64,000 bases of DNA, from assembly GCA_017499595.2 (NCBI GenBank), contig CM039008.1:124001-188000 (forward strand), written 5' to 3'. The DNA is from Psilocybe cubensis (Eukaryota). The notes under the pieces are model-generated. The model worked only from the letters and a program-made list of their open reading frames with translations, did not search any database and had not been told where the DNA came from. Numbering within the stretch: position 1 is the stretch's first letter; every line of letters begins with the position of its first letter. Both the position numbers and the translations under genes were made by a program. Positions 49,126 to 64,000 of this stretch are shown one piece after another.

Positions 49126-49684
49126 TGATTAGGTGTTTCAAGCAATAAAGATGATGTTTACGATGTGAGCTGGTCAAATTTCAGATACCCGGTTTAGTTG
49201 TTGTGACATTGTCATTGTTTTTTTTTCAGGTCTTTGCTGGCACTTCAAACACACGTCCTAACGGTTTGAGTACAGCACCGTGGATGCTCTGGAGTTCGAG
49301 TCCTAGACATGGAAATACCGTATGACAAGCAATTCAGCAAATTTTTATTTGTAAACTAATCATAGTTTTGTCTTGATACAGTTTTTAATAGGATGCGGCG
49401 AAAGGGGAGGAATTGTGGGTCTGAAAGGTATATAGTAGTCGTCCTCTTCATGTTCTTGTTGGTAGTTGTAATGCCAGTCCAAGCTTCCACTTTCTGACCT
49501 GTTTTCTTCGGAATCGGATACATAGTTGTCAGATGTATTCCAGTCATCGTATGGCGGCATATGGTGCTATATTGCAAAGAGTAAATCGGTGAGTAAGGGT
49601 AAGGAAGCAAACGTGACATGCAATGTTAATGTAACGCCGTCCCGTCGATTTCTTTCTTTTTCCGCAACTTACTTATTGATTTTA

Positions 49685-52600
49685 ATGCCTTCAAGAACTC
49701 GCAAAACTTTCCGAGCTGCTACTTTTCACTGCTCATATCCTGGATGTATCAAAACCTCAACAACATCGTGGGGAATACAGCAGCATTATACAAAAAAACA
49801 TGTTGTTCCCGCCGCTCTCAAAGCTCAGCCTATAGTATCTCAATCTCCAACAAATTGCTCCTCTTCTTCACGTTCTCCCTCTCCAACACCACAACCCTGG
49901 TCCAACAACTTTTCACCTCGTCGCTTACCTCGCCGAACACCATCTGGGTCACCAAGCTTAAATCCAAGAAGTCCAAACCCATTGCCTAAGGCTACGCGTA
50001 TTGATGTCCATCCAACAATTAATGGTTTGTTCTTTGTAGCTTTTTTTCTCCAAAAAATCTAGCTATAACTATATATGAATTGTCCAGGACGGCCGTGTGA
50101 TCTGGCTGGCAACTATCTCCCACCAAAAACCAAACCACCACCCGTCGCATCTCACAACATTGATGATTTTACGCCTTTTGCAACTCGGATGGAATTCGAA
50201 ATGGCTGAATTTTTATTTGTTGAAGAGGAAATGTCTGCAGCCAGAATAGATCGCCTTTCACAAATTTTAGGTGCCAATTATCCTAACCAAGACCCGCCGT
50301 TTGCGAATCACTCCGATCTCTATGCTTGCATTGATAGCATCAGACAAGGCAACATTCCCTGGACCTCGTTTTCAGTTACCTACAATGGAAAGCTACCGGA
50401 AGATGGTCCGATTCCTGATTGGATGAAACAAACATACGAAGTGTGGTTTCGAAATCCACTTCACGTTCTAGAGCAACAAATAGCCAATCCAACTTATGTG
50501 CAAAACATCGATTATGCTCCAAAGCGGTATTACAGGAATGGTAAACGCAGGTACCGAAATCTTATGTCGGGACAGTGGGTATGGCAGCAGGCAGTATGTT
50601 CGTTTATTATACTCTTTGACATTTTTTATTTACTCGACGGTACAGAACAAAATTGCGCAAGACATCAAATGTCACGGATCTATGTTTTGCCCAGTGGTTA
50701 TTGGAAGTGACAAGACTACTGTCTCTGTGGCAACTGGACAGAATGACTTCTACCCACTGTATATGTCATTAGGAAATATTCATAACAAAATGCGACGAGC
50801 GCATAAAGATGGGGTCTCGCTAGTTGGATTTCTGGCTATTCCTAAAAGTATGTTCTTTTTTTATTAATGAACAGACATCTTTGCTTATACAGTTTTTCTT
50901 TAAAGCATCGCAGGAGTATAGTGATAGAGCTGACTTCCGAAAATTTCGTCGGCAATTGTTTCATACATCTCTAGAACACATCTTATCATCGCTTCGACCT
51001 CACATGTCTACGCCACGTGTAACCTTGTGTGGTGATGGCCATTACCGCCGCGTTATATATGGAATTGGCCCTTACATCGCAGACTATCCTGAGCAAGCTT
51101 TGCTTGCATGCATAGTTCAAGGCTGGTGTCCAAGGGGGGTCTAATTTGCAGGATTATTATTTCTACATGTAGCTAATTTTCTCTAAAGTACAGATGCACC
51201 TCTCATCCCGATGATTTAGATGTACCTAGTCCTCGTCGGTCACACGCGCATACTGAAACCCTTATGGATGGCTGTACATTAATAGAACTGTGGGATGATT
51301 ATGGAATAGTGGGCGATCTACATGTGAGTGATTTTTCGCAAAATGTTCCACAAAATCTGAAGTTACTAACTAGTTTTTTAATAGCCTTTTACTTTGTCTT
51401 TTCCCCGAGCTGATATACATGAGCTTCTTGCCCCCGACCTACTTCACCAAATTATTAAGGGCACTTTTAAGGACCATTTGGTGGATTGGGTAACACAGTA
51501 TATTAACCAACACCACGAGCCGCCACTGGCAAAGAAAATTTTAGCAGACATTGATCGATGGTATAAATTTTTGACTTGACTTGGCGGGTGAATGTTGAGT
51601 ACTAATATTCAAAGAATTTTTTGCAGCATTGCAGTTACCCCTTCGTTTCCTGGTCTTTGTCATTTCTATCAGGGACGTGGATTTAAACAGTGGACAGGCG
51701 ATGATTCAAAGGGCTTGATGAAGGTGATTTCAAGCTAATTTAAACCACATGTAAAGTCAAGAGCACTCAACTGTTATATTAGGTATACTTGCCCGCAATT
51801 GCAGGCCATGTTCCTGATCAAATGGTTCAAGCTGTGTCCGCCTTCTTAGACTTTTGTTACCTTGTACGACGCAATGTTATCGATGACAGTGCTCTTGATC
51901 AAATTGAGGCTGCTCTATCACTCTTTCACCGCCATCGTGAAATTTTTCGAGATCTGAACGTGCGACCTGAGGGATTTTCACTCCCGCGCCAGCATTCACT
52001 TACTCATTATCCTACGTTGATTCGCCTTTTTGGAGCACCAAATGGACTTTGTTCTTCAATCACAGAAAATAAGCACATAAAGGCTGTCAAAAAGCCTTAT
52101 CGACGGTCTAGTCGCTACAAGGCACTTGGCCAAATGCTTATAACCAACCAACGGATCGACAAACTTCGAGCGGCAAGAGTCTTCTTTACCAAACACAGTA
52201 TGCTAAATGGCGGCCCAGGGTGTTACATTCCCGAAAGCATATTGAAGAATACATCAAGTCCTTCTAAAACACTACCGGCGGGTCAAAGGGTTAGTGAAGA
52301 GTGTGGCGAGATTTTTGAACCGGAATCGCAATCAGAGATTACACTTGCAAAATCTCATGGTGTGTTTTTCCAACATTCTATGGCGCATATATTCAACTAA
52401 TATTCTGTAGTACGTGGTGTTCCGCTAGCAATTGAAGCGTTTGCAGTCCACGTCAGACAACCACGCCTTCAAGAACTCACTCGACACTTTCTTTATGATC
52501 AACTTGTTTCTGCAAATGCCGACCTTCAGTTACATATCCCCTCCAACGATACCCTTCCTAGTCTTGCCGGTTGCACTTTTCGACTATTTACTTCTGCCCG

Positions 52601-53102
52601 AGCCGTCTACTTTGCACCAAGCGATCTCTCTGGATCAAATGGTCTTTACTACGAAATGATTCGCTCAACACCGTCGTGGCACAACGGTCCTGCCAGACGT
52701 GACTGTGTGTTTATTGGTAACTCAGACTCTGACGAGGATGGGTTTGCTGGTTTGCATGTGGCACGTGTATTTCTTTTTTTCTCATTCAAGTATGCTGGTA
52801 CTATATACCCATGTGCATTGGTCCAATGGTTTTCACACATTGGAGACAAGCCATGTCCAATTACTGGAATGTGGAAGGTCAAACCAGACCTAGAGAGACG
52901 AGACCAACGACATGGACAACGACGGCGGATGAATGTTGTTCACCTTGATTCTATTTATCGAGGTGCACACCTGATTGGGGATCCGGGAAAGGACTTCATT
53001 CCTGTTGACAAAGAGTTTGATTTTTCAAAATCTCTTGATGCTTTTCGTTCTTTCTATGTTAACAAGTATGTAGATCACCACGCACATGAAATCGCTTTTT
53101 AG
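49685..53102 (+). CDS. Plavaka transposase, multi-exon, with N-terminal C2H2 zinc finger
   Basis: CSYPGC...QQHYTKKH; SDKTTVSVATGQNDFYPLYMSLGNIHN..RRAH; KFRRQLFHTSL; PYIADYPEQ; PDLLHQIIKGTFKDHL; QWTGDDSKGLMK; GLCSSITENKHIKAVK; C-terminal FYVNKYVDHHAHEIAF*. Confidence 0.9.
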
Positions 53103-54945
53103 ATACCAAGAATACACTCGTTTTTGATGCCTTATTATTGAGAAATTAAGTAAAGCAAATGAAGATGCGAAAGTGTATAAAAAGTTGCAACAGAAGTGGC
53201 AAGCATCCGAAACCAAAAGTGGAAGATGCAAAAGCGAAAGCAAAAGTTGCAAAAGTCCTGAAAAGTCCCAGCGTAAGTGATTTACCCGCAAGCGCTAGAG
53301 GGTGTAGTTTTACTGATGCAGTGTATAACTGATCCTGTTTGACAATGATTTGGGATCATCCTTGGCTGCAGGCGCAATAATGCTTTGGTATTGGCCTTGG
53401 CTTGGGGTGCGGATTTCTAGTAAGTATTTCAATGTCCCCATGTCACAGCTGAAAGGGAAAGGGAATTACAAAGTCCCATTGAAGCACCCTAGTCAAGGCG
53501 GGTCTTGGGAACAGCTGATGGACCAGAGGAAACTCATACAGTCTACTTACCTAAAATTGTGTTCTTCATTTGAAATAAAAGATAACATGATTATAAGGTA
53601 AAAACTATGTCAGTGCATCGTCAGTGCACCATTAATGAAGGTCAGTGTATGTCAGTGCATGTGAGTGCACCGTCAGTGCATGTAAGTGCACCGCCAGTGC
53701 ATGTCAGTGCAAAGTCAGTGCAATTGCTTGGCGGTCAGTGCATGTGTCAGTGCATCAACTCTTGGTATTCAGTATAGAGATAATTCTAGGAGGATAGTAG
53801 ATTTCTAGACACTTATAATACATTCAAAATCCGTCTAAGTAATCCTGCACTGAACACAGTTTCATTTTATATAAGTACAGACTTCAACTTTTTCACAAAT
53901 CCTAAGTGATGTCAGTGCATGTCAGTGCATAGACATTATATTGTCAGCGCATGTCAGTGCCGACGTGCACTTACATGCACTGACATGCACTGACATTTCT
54001 TGTTGCCCTTACCGGAAGAACCTCTCACCAGCGCCGGATTTCAGATTATCATACTTCTATGATAGTATTAGCACATGGTGTATATAGGTAGGTACAAATC
54101 AAATTCCCAGATCCGGCCATGTAGATGGGAAGTTAACGAGCTAGGAAACAGTAAATATCCTATAATGCCTTATTATAAGGACGAAAATAGAAGGACGGTG
54201 GTTGCTTTAAGGAATAACATAGCGCTAACCCCCCATCCGTCGACCTTGCAGCCTCGCTCACCCTCTTGCATTCGCCCCTCATTCTCCGGGAAGATCCTCT
54301 TCTTGGTTTGCAGTCGTATTTACAATGACCCTAATAGTAGATAACAAAAAAGGGTCCACTCCTGATATGTATTGCCGCGTACAAGACCCTGTATTGATTC
54401 ATATCAGATGATCATGTACAGTTGAATCCCAAATCTAACTGAACGAAGTGCTTAAATTGTCCGAGCGTGGGTAGAGCCTCGAGCGTAGAGTCATTTACTA
54501 AAGAATTTAAGTTTAATCTGTGTTCAAAGGCGCACATTGATGTTATCTGAACACCAACTTGTCGAAAGAATCTCGTTATGACGGGCTGATTCATCACAGA
54601 ATCAATGGATTGTTTATTAAGGTCTTCTCCAAGCTATGAAGAATCGTGTGCGAAGTTGAATATTTGAAACAAAATGAGGATTCTGTATCCCTAAAACACC
54701 TCCACAGTCGTTTATTTACTGCCTGTAGGAATGATGGAAGGATATGTAAGCAAACTAACGACACACATATCTGGAAAATCAAGCTCGATACAATGGGAGT
54801 CAATAGAAAATCATCGTGATAATACCACAAAAATAGGGGAGCAGATGTATAAAAGAGTCAACTAGCTTTCCAACATTGTTGTCATTTAGTAAGAAAAAGA
54901 CCCACCATCTAAAACAACCCCAGAAATAATTGAAAACACGTAACA

Positions 54946-55586
54946 ATGCCTAGAGTACGTCACTCGCTCCTCTTCCGACTTTCACTGATATCCCCACCCA
55001 CCCACCACTTCATCTTCGTATACTCTGTCCTCTGACAGCACATTCCCAACGAGCACTATACTAGCAACCCGAACGTGGTCGTTCCCAATGCGACCAATTT
55101 CCCCGACATCGAGCACCGCGAGCATTCAAGTGACACAACTCACTACCTCCTCCCCGCTGTGTTCAACATAGAGCAAGGCGCCGAGTTTACATGGAAGTAC
55201 CTTGGCCCGGGGGTTGTTCATTTCACTGATGGTGTGTCTTCCGATTTCTACTCTCCCCGCGCCGTATTTTGTGCTTGTGCTTCTTTTGGGATCTGCTTGG
55301 CTGATATGTAGATAATACTGATGTGTCTAGGCAAAATCGTATTTGAGGACACCGCGAAGCCTGGAGTTGAGACAGTGCTTAAAGCAGGTTCAGTTCTTCA
55401 CGGAGAAGAAGGCGCTATTACCCACTGGCACTGCAACTCCTCCGCCGGATCCAAAGGTTAGTATTGGTTTACCAGAAAGTCACATTTTCTTATGACTCAC
55501 ATTGCCACGGAATGTGCAAAGGATTCGCGGTATTCCATGTACCGGTGTCTGTCAAGAGCATTGACGAATTTATCATTCGCGCATAA
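54946..55586 (+). CDS. Small cupin-like protein, paralogue F (4 exons)
   Basis: TATAAAA at 54848; ATG CCT AGA|GT; FPDIEHREH...YLLPAVF...YLGPGVVHFTDG|KIVFED...GSVLHGEEGAITHWHC...|GFAVFHVPVSVKSIDEFIIRA*. Confidence 0.85.
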
Positions 55587-56226
55587 TACGCTGTTGTGAT
55601 CTTTGCACGTTCGATGATGGCATTTCGTCCAGGTGAACGTGTAGATACAAGCAATTTTTGGAAACTACAAGCCTTAATAGCTTAAATGCTTATCACTTTG
55701 GAATAGTTGTAAAGATCATTGCAAACACACCTGAGCAACGACAGTTCCTTCATTTACTGGGAAAAAATCAGAGTATTGAAACCAAAACAGTGTTTTGGGC
55801 CCTTTCAATTTTTTGGTAAATAAGGCATAAATCCGCATGGGGACCTTTCTTTTTACTTATGTCGTAGAATTTAAGGGCCTCGACCAGGGCCGCTGCCGTT
55901 TTCGGCGATCATGATCGAAAGTTGATCGTATTCGCGTCATAGTCGTGTGCCGTTGCCCCTCCGCGAGCGATGTCCATTTTGAGCAATCACCGGTGATGGC
56001 CCTTCCTCGTGAGTGATGCGCCGGAGATAACGGCCACAGCGACGCGCGTCGCTTCCGTCGTCATCAAGAGTGCACAGCGCGCTGTTTTGCGTTTCCTGCT
56101 CGTAAACCTGCTCTCGTGCTTCGTCAAAGTTATGTATATTTGCATTTAGAACAGAGTAGAGTAATATGATATTAAAAGTATAGTAAAATAGCAATAGGAA
56201 CAAACAAAAGATAACACAAACGAAGA

Positions 56227-58603
56227 TCAAATGATGATCTTGCGGCGGCGCTGCTCGCATTCACCTCGAATTTGCTGTGCTTTTCGGATAGCTTTTAGCA
56301 GGGGCGTAAAGCCCTTGGAGTGCTCTGGATATGCGAGCATGAATGCCGATTTATCTCGCTTGTAGCTACAAATGAAAGCCAGCCACAAAATTAGTTGTTA
56401 AGAACTCTCAGAATGAACAAATCACAGACATACTGGTCAATAAACTCCAGAGCAACCGTCTGGCGCTGTCCATACTTCTGTGACTCGCCAGAGTCCTTAT
56501 GCCACTGAGGATCCCATAACTTCATTGGGACATAAAGAGATCGGACAGGATCTGCTTCTTCCCAATCTTTTGCCACTTGTTCAAAAGCCCTTGCAAGAAG
56601 CTTTCGGGGAAGGCCTGGAATAAGGTGACGACGTGAATCGACACCTTTCTTACTGTCGTCAAAGCGAATCAAACCAGTGAGGTGGTGGGGTGAAGTAAAA
56701 ACAGCCGGAGTGGGCATTTCAGACTCCAAGTCAACTGATGTGCAGTTACTTGAGCCGGAGAAACCTTGCACGGAATGAGGTACCGTGATTTCCTATGTAG
56801 CACATTGATATAGCACTTTAGATAGAATAATAATAACAAAAATTTTCATACCGTAGTGTGTTGTTCTTGTAGTTCCTTGAGACGAGAATGGATGGTGTCA
56901 ATTTGTTGAGCAACTTGGCGAGTAAATCCAGCAACAATTTCGGCCGGGGGTGCAGCATTCAATACCAACTTGTGATCTACGTTCAGATCATCTGCTACAT
57001 TTTTGGGGCAAAGGGCGTTGCTGTGATCTTCTTCGTAAGTGTATAGCTCATCTAAAAGATACCTGATTAAGGTATCCCGCTTAGATTTCAAAAAGAAACT
57101 ATTAGTGACATTCAACGAGCATTCTTGAGTGTTACTCACATGCTCTCCAGTTGCCCATCCACCCCACCATCGTATCCGAGCCAATGTCCATCGCTCTCCA
57201 AGCGGTGCAAACATAAATCTGTACTGTGCACCGCCCCGTCTAAAGCAGTGCGTTGTAAAAAATGCTGCACCGTGAATACCAGACTCAGAGGCCATTTGAT
57301 TGATTTTCTTTTGAGCAATTTCGGCTGTCATTGCTCGAGAGGGCTGGACAGATATGCCGTTTGTTCCTATTATTGGAAATATAAAGTCGTCGGGCTGGAG
57401 TGGTCTACCAAGAAGGATGGCCTCGTAAAACTCAAGCCAGTCCAGGAGGTGTGTATACATATCAATTTCCGGCGTTTTTGGTTGTTGATAAATCATATAT
57501 GTGTGGCCTGCAGTGCATCGTTTTGATCAGAATACATGGATTAGATTTTAATCAATTAGTATCTTACCGCTTAGCTGATGTTCCCCATTCTTTTCCCGCT
57601 TTTGCCAGTTTTTCCGGTTTCGTAGATTAAGCCTAAAAAAATGGTGGCCGTTACTAGTGCGTTGACGACCCATAGGAAACTCGAAGTGCTTGTACTGGAG
57701 AGAAGTGGCCTCGCCAACCCTAAAAAAGAATTATCACGTCAGGTGAGTATACAGATTAATGTGACCGTAATTAGTAGCAGACGTACCTCATCCATATTGT
57801 AAACGCAGATGTAGATAATGCATTAAACAAAAGGTGATTACACCTTGCCGTGATTTCCTTTCGCTGATTCAGCAACTTGCGCGATGAATCAATTGAAGGG
57901 CATTTATGTTTAAAATTGCGAAGTAGATATTGCATATCTTGAATTGATATTGCGCGTGAGTGTTTTCTTTCGCCTTCGCCGTCTTTTTGTTTGCAAGCGG
58001 CTACTTGATCCTCGACTTCTGCAGATCGCACTGGATTTCCTACCCATTCTTTGCTATGAACATCAAAATGCCACTTTCCACGATATTTGTCACCGCTCCT
58101 ACCAAAAAATAGTAAGCTGACATTGATACACAGATCTTAAACTAACACACGTACATCTGGTCATAGTGCCGAAGAAATGCAGCATGAATGGCAGATGCCG
58201 TTGATTTGCCACGATTATGCGTGTAGCACTTGAATGCGATAAACATAGAAATGGCAAGGGGGGTGCATTCAATAGGAAAACTGTCAAATGCTTCTCGAAA
58301 CTGAGCAGGCATGCAAAATTCAGTACTATTGAGTGATTGAATGCTTTCCTCGCCTTCTGTTGACAAATTTTGAGCAGCATTATCATTCCCACACCATTCC
58401 CCTTCTGCCCGACTTTCCTCAAGAACAAAGTTCTCTAGAAATTGTCTTCCACGTCGAATATGTCCGAAATAGTTTTCGGTGGTTGCTGCAGCCTTTCCGT
58501 GCTGCTTGATTCCATCTGTTGCGGTTTTTCGAATGTCAGCATAGCTTGGAGGTATATTTACGGCTGATTTTGGCTTGATAGATATTTTAGCAGACTTTGG
58601 CAT
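56227..58603 (-). CDS. Crypton-like tyrosine recombinase, multi-exon
   Basis: Box I FTIWMR|VGEATSL (RxxExxxL); LRNRKNWQK; FIFP; box II FTTHCFRRGGAQY (HxxR); RWWGGW; TLIRYLL (candidate catalytic Tyr); N-terminal GNPVRSAEV; C-terminal KDWEEADP...PMKLW...KYGQRQTVALEF domain; no RT/RNase H nearby. Confidence 0.85.
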
Positions 58604-58933
58604 GGTGAAAGTATGATTGTAGTATCTACAGAGTACACCTGCATTGCAAAGATTATGCTACGCCGGTAAACGGAATCAGTTTGAAACATTTGTTTTAAGG
58701 TCTAATTTAGGGGCTTCTTAATTGGGAAACGGAAACCTGGCTAATGAGCGAGATACTGTTTTTTTTGCAGATTACAACGGCGAACTGAGAACACACTTTA
58801 TGGTACTACGTAACTACTAATTATTACACAGAATGTACGGCAAGACTGGTTAAAAGAAGAAGTAAGGAATGATAAAAATTGGGAGTAAAATGACATTAGC
58901 CGTAAGCCTAGAAGTCAACGTGAAATTGGAAAG

Positions 58934-60768
58934 TTATGCAGCAAGAACCTATTTCATGGATGAAGCGAATAGAAACCATAATCCATAATCAACTTACTGG
59001 CGTATAGAGCTCTAACTGACCATCAAATGAAACTCGTGGATGCTCTGCATAGAATTTTGCAACTTTTTGACTCGAAAATGCCTGTAAAATTGGCTCGGGA
59101 ATCCATATCAACATTTGAATGGTTGTCGAAAGGCCCTCGATCGAGGAAGGGTGTGTGCCAGCATGCCTAACAACGGAAGTTGCTGCCTCAGCAGCGAGGG
59201 CATTGATCCACATTGTCAACCGAATGTTAACAAATGTTTTGGATGATTTTGCACGTGTCATGAAGCGAATGTTAGATTTTAAAGCTGACACGTCATTTTG
59301 AGTATGCTCGACAGGAGAAAATGACGATAGCTAGTATATTCACAACGGATACATGTAAGCAAAACAATACAGTAAAAATGAGCAGACAAGCATACCTGTA
59401 TAAATTTACGAATGAAATATCCGTCCCATATATTGCTCACAAATCTAGAAGCAATTGTTGGGCCCCAACCAAATAACCGGCCACAAGTAGCAGCCAGCTT
59501 TGAGTTATCAGGTACCTCCGGAATAAACCATTGGTTACTATGTGCCAAACTACCCGGTTGTGACTCCGAAGTAAGAGGATGACTATACAGCTTGAGCACT
59601 TTTGGGTCCGGAAATGCATCGGAAACATTAGCTGCAACCTTTGGATGCTTCCTACCAATACGCCCACTATAATCATGCTCAAGTTCATTGCACAAAGAAA
59701 TGTGCCACTCTTTCAAAAATATTTTTAGCATGTTTTCGTCATACTCATGGGCAGCATCAAATAACTGCTGAGCTAGCGGGCCCGATGCAAGTGCCGAAGC
59801 CGTAATTGGTCCACAACCCTTGAGTCCGATCTAGATAATGTAGATTTTCAGATTAGCAAGAGAATCTATACTTCATATAATAATCACGTACTGTATCATA
59901 GTCACCGCCACAAACTACCGCCAAAAAAAGAAGTGCAGCCGGCGAAAATGCATTAGGGTTAGGCTGCGCAGCTAAAGCACCTGCAGTATAGACCTCAACA
60001 ATGTCCTTTTCCTTCGCATCTTTTACATTCCTATATATGAATTAGAAATAGCTTGAACTAATAAAACACAAAAAACCAACATTCGCAAAATTTGTGGAGC
60101 ACCAAAAAGAAATGCATCACTGTCTACTGTAAGAACAGCATCAACAGCGTGAATTCTATTCATATATGCAAGCTCGGCCTCCGCCTCCCCTGGAGCCTGC
60201 AAATTAGATATCAATATAAATACACTAAATCAAGAATTGTAACAACATACCGTATGGTAGTGAAACCCAAACCCGTTAATTAACTCTTTGAATGCTTTGG
60301 TCATCCAATGAGGCATCGTTCGAACACGGCGTCCCCTTTTGGTTTTCGGACGGTTTGCGCCATCAAATACAAACACAGCGCTTATAGCGCATCGTGAAAG
60401 CATTGCCAAACGGAAGAAAAGAGTGCGTAGTTCGGGATTCTGTCCTGCCTGAGCATGAGAATGCCCAGCAAAAATTGCCTGTGTGGAGTAGAACCATGGA
60501 CTATTATGCACACGGCGCACCATACATTCAATAATAAGCACAAAAAAACGCCAGAAAAGTCTAATCCACCTACCTTGCATCAATGCCAATGACTAAAACT
60601 CCAGTACCATGCCGTCTGCTTACAACACCTTCTTGTACGGACATTTCTAATAGTGATTTTCTCTGTGCAACGGGCTCAAGCATCTAAATCGGCAGTCAAT
60701 TCAAAGATTAGATCAGTATCACACAACAGCATGCTGTAACGTACCTTCCATAACTTATTGATACCCAT
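58934..60768 (-). CDS. XPG/Rad2-family (GEN1/Yen1-like) structure-specific nuclease, multi-exon
   Basis: MGINKLWK|...VIGIDAS; NPELRTLFFRL; VFVFDGANRPKTKRG; APGEAEAELAYMN; VDAVLTVDSDAFLFGA; H3TH GGDYDT|IGLKGCG; FPDPKVLKLYSHPLTS. Acidic active-site residues present. Confidence 0.9.
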
Positions 60769-62187
60769 GATGAATAGAGATTTTGAGAGAATAAGAAGAC
60801 AACGGTAATTGAATGCGCTTAGAAGAAATGATGAGTGTCAAAAACAAGTATTGTCGTACCAGACATTTCACCCAATGTTTCGGTGACCGCACCATAAATC
60901 CGTGACTTTGGTCTGCTACCCAACCTTTGGCTATGTCTAGCTTTTGTCCAGTCAGTACTATTGAGTTTGTCAGTTTATATCAGAGTATAGAAAGTCGGAT
61001 TTACGGTATCAAATTTTTGAGGGAGGTCTATATTCTTTAGTACAAGGAATGCAAACCAGTCAACAAAACGGACCCAAACTGCGAACCGCAGACTCAACGT
61101 CAGGTGATACCGTGATATCTAAAAATAGGTTCATTGACTTCACCATTCCGCAGATTTTGTCAACCGTTGCACGCTTGTGTCCTTCTCAGCATTGAAATAA
61201 TTATACACTAGTAGCTGTATAATTCACTAAATTCACTAAATTTCTTAAATTTCTTAAATTCTTCCCAAACGGAGACCAGGGATCTCAATGACAGATGTTG
61301 TACTGCATATCAGTGCTGTTTCCGATTTTTGTTGGAAGATCAAGATGTTATATTAGTACCCAGTAATTTTGTAAGGCATTAACAGAGATTCTTTACTTAA
61401 AATTTAATATCCCGAGAATTGTACATTGAATGTGTTATTTTTGAAAGAAGTCTGCTAGTTTATTCATCATGTATTCCTATCATATTTCCCTCACGTTCAC
61501 CTCAACTTCACATATCTCACGCCCCCTTTCTTGTTTGGTCATTTTTCCACACCATGTTCTTATTCATGGGGCGCATGATGGAAGTCCCGTTTATACTGGC
61601 ATTGCACTTGGGGATACGGAATTGGATACAGTTTTATGACGGGCTTTTGTAACAAAACGGATCTTTTTATTGCCTTCTTTGCTCAGTTGGAACCTAGCGC
61701 TTTCAACGCCTCTCGACCTCACACCTACACCCCATCCTGTCAACCCACCCAATGCGGTTTGGACATATTCTAATGCCTTACCTTTTGCCTTTTTTGTCAC
61801 TTGCCGCGCCTATAGCTAGTCCATCAGCTTGTGCAAGCCTCAATCTAGTCGCTGATTTGGCCAATTGGGTTTGGGATAAGTGCCCACTGTTATGGCACCA
61901 CCGTCCGATCTTTTTTGGTGTCTTGTCCCGGCCTCCAGGGACATCATAAGGCTGCCGTTAGATCCACATCGTGGATTTTCAGAATTTAAGACGGCACGTT
62001 AAAATCGACCGATTAACTAGACTTACTTCTTCAAGGTAAGCAGAAGGTCTGTGCGTGTGAACCTAATGAACCTCCGCGCGGCCGGAATACTTGTGCCGAG
62101 ATTGCACTTGTCGTTTTGCTCATTAAAATGCCGTAAAGCAGGCGTGGCGTCAGCACAACAGGGCAACGCAGGTTACGACCACATCTC

Positions 62188-64000
62188 ATGGGTTGTTGTA
62201 TCTCTGTTATCTCACCTAGCTCAACCAAATCTAAGAGAACTTCTCAACCTCTCGAAAACCCCACTTTTCGACGACCTTCATCCATCTGTCAAGTATGTTG
62301 GGAAACAGTATTCTCTGTACAGCTTGGCTTGTTATGCAAGCCGCTAGTTCGCACCGATGCTGACGAACCACCAAGAGGAGGCCTTTCTTACACAATTACA
62401 ATGGAAGATATCAAAAAGAATGCTTTTTCTGAATGCCAATGGTGCATGTTCATTCTCACACTTATACAGGAAGACACTCGTAGATCAGGGAGTGGTACAC
62501 TCGACATTATCATGGGTATCAGACCTCAAAACGGCTACCTAGGATCGCCAAAGAACACACAAGCGCTTTGCATATACATCAACAACTTTCTAAGCTTTGA
62601 AGGATTTTTATATGCTGATGCAGGTATTCGGCGCAGTTCCTTACTTATATAATCCATATTCACCGGATTGAGTCAGACAGTCCATCAGCAGAGTATATTA
62701 CTGCTAGAAGTCGTATCATCGAGGTCGGGTCTTCTCAGGCCCTCTCACTATGCAAAAAGCACCTGGACGAGTGTGTACGCTCTCATAAACGTTGTTCTCC
62801 ACGCGTCGACCCATGTCCTCCATTACCCACCCGCGTGATAGATTGCAGCGACGCCAACAATCCCCGACTTGTGGAGACAACAAACCTAGAAGGCTCGTAC
62901 TGCACACTAAGCTACGTCTGGGGTGAAGCCCAACCTCACAGTACCAATAAAAACAACATCAAGGCATATACTGACAAAATTGACACTACGCGTCTCCCCA
63001 AGACCATACTTAATGCGATCCACACCACCACTGCACTGGGTTTGCGTTACCTCTGGATAGACTCCCTATGCATAATTCAAGACTCTGAAGACGACAAGTT
63101 GCTTGAGATCGCGCGCATGGGGCACATTTACCGCAATGCATATGTTACCATCATTGCTGCGAGTGCTCAACGCGTAAGCACAGGATTCTTGGAGCCACGC
63201 CCGCCCGTTCCACCTGCCCAGTTTCCGCGTGACATTTCCATGCCGTTCCCCTGCTTCCCAGAAGAAGAAGGAAATCGTACCCCTTTCACCCTCGGAACCG
63301 TGCGCATGTCCCCTACATCATTTTACGCAGAGTCAGAGGATACGTTCGACAAATGGTCCGACTACTTCCCAGGAATGGAGCCCGTAAACGAGCGCGCGTG
63401 GTGTCTGCAGGAATACGCTATGTCTCCACGCGCACTCGTCTTCGCGTCCCATACGGTACAGTTTCACTGTCGTACTGGGGGCGCGCAGAATGTCGGCGGG
63501 TCATATGGTGACCACCCAGACCGCGAAAATCTGCTTCCTGCCTCCTTCTTCGCACAAGAAGGTTCAAAAGATGTGAAAACGGTGACCCGAGGCTCGCCAG
63601 CCTGGGTATCCGCGCGGTTCGCATGGCACTCTGCGGTAGAGGGATATACGCGCCGTGCGCTTACGAAACCCGAGGACAAATTTGTGGCTTTTGCCGGTGT
63701 TGCAGAGGCATTCCAGCCTGTTTGGGGCGGGGTCTACCTTGCAGGACTGTGGCAGGACACACTCCTCTCCGATTTACTTTGGTCAAAGTTTGCTGATATG
63801 GATATGCCACGTCCAAAAGTTTACCGTGCACCATCATGGTCGTGGGCATCTATAGACGGATCTATCATTCCTGGAAAGCTATATGATAAAGAGTTGCATG
63901 AAGGGGATACTCTTGCCAGTGTTATCGACTGCAAAGTGGAGCTAAAATACAGTGAGCACCCGTTTGGAGAGGTTAATAGGGGTGTTCTGGTTCTTCGTGC
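62188..64000 (+). CDS. HET-domain protein, copy 2, 3'-partial (intron 62624-62676)
   Basis: MGCCIS...RPSSICQVCWETVFSVQLGLL; LPTRVIDC; YCTLSYVWG; YLWIDSLCIIQD; RAWCLQE; YRAPSWSWAS; colinear with 22403-24553, same intron position. Confidence 0.92.

Follow-up and report, generated by a model that had tools for sequence, protein, structure and literature searches.

A probable Crypton-type mobile element of Psilocybe cubensis with a GEN1-like nuclease gene beside its tyrosine recombinase gene

The window analysed here, a stretch of 64,000 nucleotides from contig CM039008.1 of Psilocybe cubensis (assembly GCA_017499595.2, positions 124,001 to 188,000 of the forward strand), carries two tandem genes on its minus strand, the first encoding a GEN1-like nuclease and the second a Crypton-like tyrosine recombinase. 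The 6,166-bp block that contains both (55855-62020) is either there in full or missing precisely from end to end, with TAAGT direct repeats at its bounds, and there is little doubt that it is a mobile element of the Crypton type. It occurs once in the window and consists of these two genes and non-coding sequence, with no reverse transcriptase or DDE transposase. The initial annotation of this DNA placed the two same-strand genes and their outer ends exactly (nuclease ATG at 60768, recombinase stop at 56227), but it described the genes as uninterrupted, whereas each has six introns, and it gave the spacer between them as ~330 bp, whereas it measures 385 nt (58604-58988). The features of the locus are as follows (aa, amino acids; ORF, open reading frame).

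55855..62020, minus strand: the whole probable mobile element, 6,166 bp with one copy of the 5-bp repeat counted, delimited by the joint 55854->62021 and the boundary sequences
58989..60768, minus strand: predicted GEN1-like nuclease gene, 471 aa, 7 exons (60768-60745, 60683-60574, 60500-60251, 60196-60081, 60030-59892, 59830-59396, 59330-58989)
56227..58603, minus strand: predicted Crypton-like tyrosine recombinase gene, 668 aa, 7 exons (58603-58155, 58098-57787, 57719-57568, 57507-57140, 57079-56852, 56792-56434, 56365-56227)
62021..62025, minus strand: flank copy of the TAAGT core (ACTTA on the plus strand), just beyond the 5' end of the element; the empty allele has one copy
61941..62020, minus strand: 5' terminal region, CTAGTTAATC..., with an inverted TTAAAT-like motif 14 nt in, a copy of CTTAAATTC at +31 and a TCCACGA block
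60769..62020, minus strand: 5' leader, non-coding, upstream of the nuclease ATG, 1,252 nt, with no ORF longer than 74 aa and no tblastx similarity to related loci
58604..58988, no strand assigned: spacer from the nuclease stop to the recombinase ATG, 385 nt
55860..56226, minus strand: 3' non-coding region from the recombinase stop to the terminal TAAGT, 367 nt
55855..55875, minus strand: conserved 3' terminus, CTTAAATTC-N7-TAAGT, of which the last 8 nt are ACATAAGT, including the element's own TAAGT at 55855-55859

The predicted splice models rest on GT..AG sites in both genes (six introns of 50-73 nt in the nuclease gene, six of 56-68 nt in the recombinase gene), on an annotated protein in the case of the recombinase, all 668 residues of which are identical to P0001 (hypothetical protein JR316_0011232 [Psilocybe cubensis]), and on end-to-end alignment to relatives in the case of the nuclease (51% identical to P0276 over 471 aa, and 48% identical to P0129). 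The lone flaw of the latter alignment is a 1-aa gap near the junction of exons 4 and 5. The window nuclease was not found as an annotated protein in the protein searches. A further conserved ORF was sought by tblastx in the 5' leader, the spacer and the 3' region, none of which matched any related locus; a repeat search of 52-63 kb revealed no terminal inverted or long direct repeats at 55855/62020, and no tRNA or known RNA that could be the target lies within 50-64 kb.

An empty site, for which the initial annotation had proposed to look, was found among the reads and contigs of four sequencing runs aligned to positions 53000-64000: exactly 55855-62020 is missing in two contig sets (X8 and X9) and in one raw-read run (X12). 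The joint 55854->62021 skips 6166 bases, with five letters that fit either side and none between, and it is carried by one contig of 9,283 nt (X8), one contig of 3,772 nt (X9) and 13 raw reads with 11 starts (X12). On the plus strand of the window, ACTTA stands at 55855-55859 and again at 62021-62025. Read in the orientation of the genes, the filled site begins with gaag-TAAGT followed by CTAGTTAATC and ends with CTTAAATTCTACGACA-TAAGT followed by aaaaag; the empty allele reads GAAG-TAAGT-AAAAAG, with a single TAAGT.

Contigs from the interior of the element are also present in X8 and X9 (one matches 55899-58600 with 24 differences), which means that those samples carry the element elsewhere, at a different site or on a second haplotype. 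In X8, loose ends at 55854 and 62024, with a consensus agreement of only 0.6, hint at other flanks. In X12 the recombinase half (55936-58871) is uncovered except for its most conserved 370 nt, and the nuclease half with the 5' leader (58872-61440) is covered by lower-identity reads at about one third to one half of the flank depth, a pattern indicating that this copy is missing there and that relatives are present. These relatives are closer to the window in the nuclease half than in the recombinase half. A further joint, which runs from 60721 back to 57782 and contains 32 inserted letters that are identical in all three runs, is present in contigs of X8 (depth 103 versus ~42 for the flanks) and X9 and in 18 reads of X12; it points to a differently arranged, multi-copy relative. 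No excess of read depth over the element was seen in the aligned runs.

The pairing of recombinase and nuclease, on which the initial annotation had made its interpretation depend, recurs both in named genomes and in metagenomes. The recombinase has 393 relatives, and all named ones among the 120 listed come from Agaricomycetes. Seven of these 120 are fused gene models of 1,158-1,397 aa in which XPG_I is joined to the recombinase, six of them with the nuclease first, as in the window. The recombinase's own start, MPK..., is kept inside the fused models, which identifies them as merged predictions of two neighbouring genes, and the proteins of 1,150-1,400 aa named 'Flap endonuclease GEN 1' or 'XPG-I domain-containing' are likely artefacts of this kind. 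The reversed model (P0077 of Steccherinum ochraceum, 1158 aa) has the recombinase and then the nuclease, the order expected across two tandem copies, and P0340 of Mycena kentingensis (733 aa) merges parts of both element genes, XPG_I and GCR1_C. A HMMER scan for the nuclease returned 809 representative clusters at E <= 0.001; none of the 148 new matches includes a recombinase part, so fused models are a minority.

At least 10 pairs were recognized in named genomes. A single 48,691-nt contig of Gymnopilus dilepis carries both CVT26_012441 (nuclease) and CVT26_012439 (recombinase), and in nine further species nuclease and recombinase lie on contigs of identical size. Metagenome contigs scanned with the recombinase alignment gave 80 loci. 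At 20 of them the contig extends 2,000 nt or more upstream of where the recombinase is inferred to start, and 15 of these 20 have an upstream nuclease in the same orientation, at a distance of 345-1,190 nt; with at least 1,000 nt upstream the proportion is 29 of 43 (30 by hidden Markov model, HMM). Where 2,500 nt or more of downstream sequence is available (14 loci), no nuclease was found downstream of the recombinase. Related pairs occur in unrelated flanks and in multiple copies that are 77-99% identical within single metagenomes. Complete relatives have full lengths of 5.4 kb (L004), 7.5 kb (L005) and 9.2 kb (L035).

Several relatives hold additional genes. A gene for the small subunit of ribonucleotide reductase (RNR; L035:6112-7495, plus strand, Pfam E 5e-56) lies upstream of the nuclease inside the 9.2-kb element L035:4723-13922, and is cargo in a Crypton-like element; further copies are present at L022:1202-2216 and L031:2856-3386, the three being 87-97% identical. 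ORFs with a TATA-binding protein (TBP) domain (E 7e-7) are found upstream of the nuclease at L039:328-783 (plus strand) and in a nuclease-lost derivative at L001:2643-2960 (plus strand). L001:7266-7916 (minus strand) has a weak match to the Ras family.

The ends of the window element are shared with its relatives. A 3' motif of the ACATAAGT type also terminates the elements in L001, L005, L030, L031, L034, L035 and L039, and variants of it are present at 13 further loci. A search motif consisting of TTAAA or GTAAA, 5-13 nt and then [AG][CG]N-TAAGT matched 22 times on the recombinase strand versus twice on the opposite strand in 418,518 nt; 20 of the 22 matches lie 369-1,785 nt past the recombinase, and the motif is present at 12 of the 14 loci whose contigs continue downstream for 2,000 nt or more. 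The window's own 3' end, 372 nt past the recombinase stop, is an end of this kind and falls within the short class of relatives (369-573 nt). Comparison of multiple copies, suggested in the initial annotation as a means of defining the ends, did define them: copies of the same family (L030/L031/L035, L001/L034, L002/L004) diverge directly after ACATAAGT, and TAAGT is all that the 5' junctions have in common, the three preceding bases being AAG in the window, ATG in L003, CCA in L004 and ACA in L005 and L035. The layout that follows TAAGT at the 5' end of the window recurs at L005:79, L035:4731, L003 and L004, where the element starts C[TA][AG]GTT..., and the 5' terminal motifs are probably binding sites of the recombinase. 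By blastn the window ends have no match in the related loci, with which they have only short motifs in common. With a preceding G or A the core becomes (G/A)TAAGT, presumably the same string as the common fungal 5' splice-site consensus.

Hairpins or cruciforms at the termini were considered as a GEN1 substrate and rejected, as folds of four 5' and four 3' ends gave z-scores of -2.1 to +1.4. A 1.46-kb stretch at L001:30-1487 begins after ...TATTAAGT, contains several TAAAT-type motifs and ends in GTAAATTCGTCG-ACATAAGT, abutting the 5' end of the next element; it has no similarity to the other loci and could represent either a small derivative that is not autonomous or the last part of a copy in tandem.

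The recombinase has the catalytic residues that the initial annotation had ascribed to it (RxxE, HxxR, W and a candidate Tyr), namely R254 with E257, H391, R394, W419/W422 and Y434, together with K290. In two family alignments the H, W and Y columns do not vary, and conservation of R and K is at least 90%. Its Pfam matches are sub-threshold: DUF3435 in 9 of 24 members (best 0.0013), Phage_integrase in 6 of 24 and GCR1_C in 2 of 24 (E 0.01), the window protein itself matching DUF3435 at E 0.012 with 15 bits versus a cut-off of 25.8. A fold search with the recombinase model (predicted local distance difference test, pLDDT, 72.6) gave nothing but Cre chains for its top 27 ranks, of which the leading 23 have E <= 0.001; XerH, the integron and lambda integrases and Flp ranked below Cre. 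The C-terminal exons of the window recombinase have no Pfam match. The fused model P0340 carries GCR1_C (PF12550), and the protein Atlas, taken as a lead only, puts P0001 near NDC10_II/GCR1_C clusters, with GCR1_C in 56% of the members of a neighbour cluster; the conserved C-terminal domain that follows the recombinase may be GCR1_C-like.

The nuclease matches XPG_I with a Pfam E of 2.6e-15 and XPG_N, on a single exon, with only 0.0097. The acidic residues and helix motif reported in the initial annotation are both in place: all seven acidic residues of the Rad2/XPG family are present (D43, D91, E132, E134, D153, D155 and D210), and a GLKGCG motif of the helix-two-turn-helix (H2TH) type follows them. 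The accessible text of PMC5039027 gives the acidic active-site set of human GEN1 as D30, E75, E134, E136, D155, D157 and D208. Searched against PDB, a profile of the nuclease family matched GEN1 of Chaetomium thermophilum at 3e-90, XPG at 1e-41, human GEN1 at 1e-37, FEN1 at 1e-25 and EXO1 at 1e-20, and the H2TH exon of the window alone had the fungal (C. thermophilum) GEN1 as its sole match. An AlphaFold model of the Gymnopilus relative P0129 (48% identical; pLDDT 90, predicted template-modelling score 0.90) found the fungal GEN1 first in a fold search, with E 3e-22, ~445 aligned columns and TMt ~0.8, followed by human GEN1 and then by XPG/Rad2 over only ~340 columns. The model has three strands plus helices at 354-433, and its alignment over ~445 columns of GEN1 suggests that this relative also has the chromodomain-like end. 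By these comparisons the window nuclease is closer to GEN1 than to FEN1, EXO1 or XPG, and is a short GEN1 paralogue with an intact predicted active site.

It is not the single-copy housekeeping GEN1 of its host. The initial annotation had considered that it might be the syntenic GEN1/Yen1 orthologue; the canonical protein of P. cubensis is P0355 ('Flap endonuclease GEN-like protein 1', 791 aa, with XPG_N, XPG_I and GEN1_C), which is encoded on another contig and to which the window nuclease is 34% identical. In a nuclease tree of 77 rows, rooted on six Ascomycota GEN1 proteins (an unrooted version was also made), every one of the 25 nucleases linked to a recombinase groups with 28 short relatives in a single clade, with a value of 99 in the Shimodaira-Hasegawa-like approximate likelihood ratio test (SH-aLRT). 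All canonical GEN1 proteins of Agaricomycotina, including that of P. cubensis, fall outside this clade, and Mixia branches below. The longer nuclease matches of the HMMER scan likewise fall into two classes, one of 600-1,000 aa with GEN1_C and one of 350-560 aa that has XPG_N/XPG_I alone at Pfam thresholds. A shared-word search for the nuclease returned only seven GEN1 proteins of Mycena. P. cubensis also possesses at least one further short nuclease paralogue (P0325, 422 aa, 31% identical) and a further recombinase paralogue (P0002, 624 aa, 59% identical), an indication that other, older element lineages coexist in its genome.

In the recombinase tree the nine nuclease-less rows are scattered and need six changes, which suggests that the ancestor had both genes and that the nuclease was lost several times. 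The pairwise distances of the two proteins are correlated (Spearman 0.48, reached in none of 2,000 permutations), and the groupings of the two trees agree. Ratios of nonsynonymous to synonymous substitution rates (dN/dS), computed from a rough codon alignment of tblastn pieces for the five copy pairs with finite dS, span 0.12-0.51 in the nuclease gene and 0.15-0.47 in the recombinase gene. The nuclease has evidently travelled with the recombinase since the base of the element family, under purifying selection as strong as that on its partner, and is very likely an ancestral and functional gene of the element.

The best overall explanation, which is probably correct, is that the element is a Crypton-type DNA transposon that is still intact and has moved in the recent past, and whose nuclease may act in its recombination. 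The retained introns in both genes argue for a DNA route of movement. The element would excise as a circle with the joined ends ...ACA-TAAGT-CTAG..., and, as in Goodwin's Crypton model, the recombinase would exchange strands within the TAAGT core between this circle and a genomic TAAGT. The GEN1-like nuclease would process the four-way junction or a related branched intermediate. The chance that it acts on the recombination junction itself is put at slightly below even, and the best argument for such a role is that it belongs to the junction-resolving branch of its superfamily and is a constant partner of an enzyme that makes junctions. The host GEN1/Yen1 is restricted to part of the cell cycle by means of its long C-terminal tail; we propose that an element with its own junction nuclease need not wait for that enzyme. 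More tentatively, mushroom-forming fungi may contain a large, old and active Crypton superfamily that captured a host GEN1 once, early in Agaricomycotina, and stripped it of its regulatory tail to make a second transposition enzyme, the recombinase starting the exchange at TAAGT and the resolvase finishing it. If true, no eukaryotic transposon before it would have had a mechanism with two enzymes, a recombinase and a resolvase.

A number of observations weigh against this account or parts of it. The empty site alone cannot separate insertion from precise excision or deletion, and the circle junction 62020->55855 is crossed by no read or contig among the joints listed. The Pfam matches of the recombinase, to DUF3435, Phage_integrase and GCR1_C, all stay under the threshold, a PDB sequence search with its profile gave no matches, its model drops below a pLDDT of 50 across residues 395-445, the segment with the catalytic W and Y, and the matches to Cre have template-modelling scores of only 0.2/0.4, with poor global superposition. 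GEN1_C was not detected by Pfam in the last exon of the window nuclease, the same exon finds no GEN1 in PDB, and the chromodomain-like part was seen only in the model of the 48%-identical relative P0129. The 80 loci belong to ~20-25 sequence families, so the linkage counts are not independent; the trees are quick IQ-TREE runs with SH-aLRT values only, and the locus proteins in them are chained tblastn pieces. Five of the 20 loci with ample upstream sequence have no nuclease. The L002/L003/L004 family, with at least two copies in different flanks and the same termini, has none even by HMM, and its retention of ends and of several copies implies that the nuclease is not needed in cis; this lineage may use a nuclease supplied in trans, or none.

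Four other explanations compete with recombination by a two-gene transposon. That there is no element at all, and that a domesticated recombinase and a GEN1 paralogue are chance neighbours removed by an ordinary deletion, has been largely refuted and can practically be set aside: both genes are intron-rich and intact, as host genes are, and the 64-kb window holds one copy, but the deletion would have had to hit the conserved terminal motif and the 5-bp repeat exactly, and related pairs stand in unrelated flanks, with multiple copies 77-99% identical within single metagenomes. It is also very improbable that the nuclease makes a staggered cut in the target and that the 5-bp repeat is a true target-site duplication. 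Such cuts would suit both the flanking repeat and the intact active site; the same TAAGT, however, is found in the window, L004, L005 and L035 and is part of the conserved ACATAAGT terminus at 20 loci, and we know of no structure-selective GEN1-type nuclease that cuts plain duplex at a sequence.

Rather better placed, though unlikely, is the view that the nuclease is a long-kept passenger, an unregulated junction or flap nuclease that benefits the element or the host in some other way, for instance by repairing the donor site, by helping to survive replication stress or by hindering rival elements. Relatives carry cargo at the same upstream position (RNR small subunit in L022, L031 and L035; TBP-domain ORFs in L001 and L039), and nuclease-less lineages keep the same ends and several copies. 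Unlike the other cargo, however, the nuclease is distributed across the whole recombinase tree with scattered absences, is fixed in position and strand, co-diverges with the recombinase and is equally constrained. A little less likely again is an action in replication, whether trimming of 5' flaps or resolution of concatemers or tandem arrays of a replicating excised circle. To its credit are the cleavage of 5' flaps by GEN1 enzymes as well (according to the accessible text of PMC5039027), the gene for deoxynucleotide triphosphate supply (RNR small chain) in one relative family and the head-to-tail neighbours, such as the 3' motif at L001:1480 that abuts the next element start and the recombinase-then-nuclease order of P0077; yet no polymerase, helicase or Rep was found in the window element or the related loci scanned, and the aligned runs show neither excess depth nor circle reads over the element.

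Full-text literature searches, with Repbase and paper supplements outside their scope, found no Crypton or other tyrosine-recombinase element with an XPG, GEN1 or Yen1 nuclease, in keeping with the initial annotation, which knew of no described element class with this pairing. The word 'nuclease' has no occurrence in the accessible text of PMC3212892 (Kojima & Jurka 2011), and the second genes listed for Cryptons in the accessible text of PMC13465315 (2026) are a DDE transposase, a C48 peptidase and a helix-turn-helix protein. According to the available parts of these two sources, Cryptons have terminal direct repeats of 4-6 bp that are recombination substrates and not target-site duplications (PMC3212892; PMC13465315).

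Like CryptonF, the window element has a tyrosine recombinase as its lone recombination enzyme, lacks terminal inverted repeats, long terminal repeats and reverse transcriptase, contains introns, and has 5-bp direct repeats that match the target, as do the 4-6 bp repeats of Cryptons. It differs from CryptonF in its conserved second gene of the GEN1 type, its TAAGT core and ACATAAGT terminus, the cargo of some members and the hosts of the family, which are Agaricomycetes, a few relatives apart. The Crypton-Cn1 type reportedly goes back to Goodwin in 2003. With GEN1/Yen1 (C. thermophilum 5cnq/6grb; human 5t9j) the element nuclease shares XPG_N and XPG_I, the seven acidic residues and the H2TH region, the modelled relative P0129 has the chromodomain-like end, and fungal GEN1 is the best match in both sequence and fold; in contrast to GEN1/Yen1, the element nucleases constitute a separate, fast-evolving, multi-copy clade inside a mobile element and have 350-560 aa without the long C-terminal tail, the canonical proteins having 600-1000 aa.

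Starships resemble the window element in being fungal and mobilised by a recombinase, with short direct repeats at a specific target, possible cargo and a recombinase that is distantly DUF3435-like. Elements of the window type are, however, 5-9 kb long (6.2 kb in the window) rather than tens to hundreds of kb, their recombinase is the last gene where the Starship captain is the first, and the window's DUF3435 match is below the Pfam cut-off. The hosts of the window-type elements are Basidiomycota, in which, according to the accessible text of PMC11162782, Starship recombinases are generally lacking.

Mobile or viral genomes that supply their own resolvase of branched DNA offer a further parallel. 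Lambdoid phages encode Rap/RusA beside Int, and poxviruses encode A22. These junction resolvases have RusA and RuvC-like folds, in contrast to the FEN/XPG fold of the element nuclease, and they serve replication and packaging rather than integration.

The surroundings of the element are themselves rich in transposons. At a distance of 3 kb from the element, 50069-51141 on the plus strand encodes a Plavaka (KDZ) transposase (Pfam E 7e-29 and 1e-30), and ORFs associated with Plavaka span 49526 to 53102. They are followed at 53600-54000 by direct and inverted GTCAGTGCAT repeats, where reads are 5-20 times as deep as over the flanks; a transposon with many copies probably ends here. The AT-richness that the initial annotation saw in the two genes is real relative to the start of the window (G+C 0.41-0.44 versus 0.47-0.59) but not relative to the transposon-rich 44-56 kb (0.42-0.44), so composition does not single out the gene pair. 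Its flanking HET and cupin genes fared less well: the right neighbour has a weak HET match (E 0.0044, below the Pfam cut-off), and the 'cupin' ORFs have no Pfam match. Its interpretation of the gene pair as a mobile element, on the other hand, gains support from the empty site, the conserved ends and the recurrent linkage.

To our knowledge, Crypton movement still exists as a model only, and reconstitution of a eukaryotic Crypton has yet to be achieved. With an intact element whose limits are known to the base pair, together with its empty site, 5-bp core, ends and two-gene set, the Crypton model becomes directly testable. If the GEN1 paralogue is needed, elements with a tyrosine recombinase would have a further, novel means of finishing their recombination in chromatin, and the paralogue would also be a naturally unregulated, compact eukaryotic junction resolvase. 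If the (G/A)TAAGT core is truly the fungal 5' splice consensus, the starts of introns would be ready-made targets. The element family apparently accounts for a large part of the expansions of 'PIN domain-like' and 'XPG-I domain-containing' proteins in mushrooms (809 clusters), and likewise for mushroom proteins named 'Ndc10 domain-containing' and 'Tyr recombinase domain-containing' (393 relatives). The cargo in its relatives suggests that small cargo-moving elements exist in Basidiomycota, where Starships are reported to be scarce.

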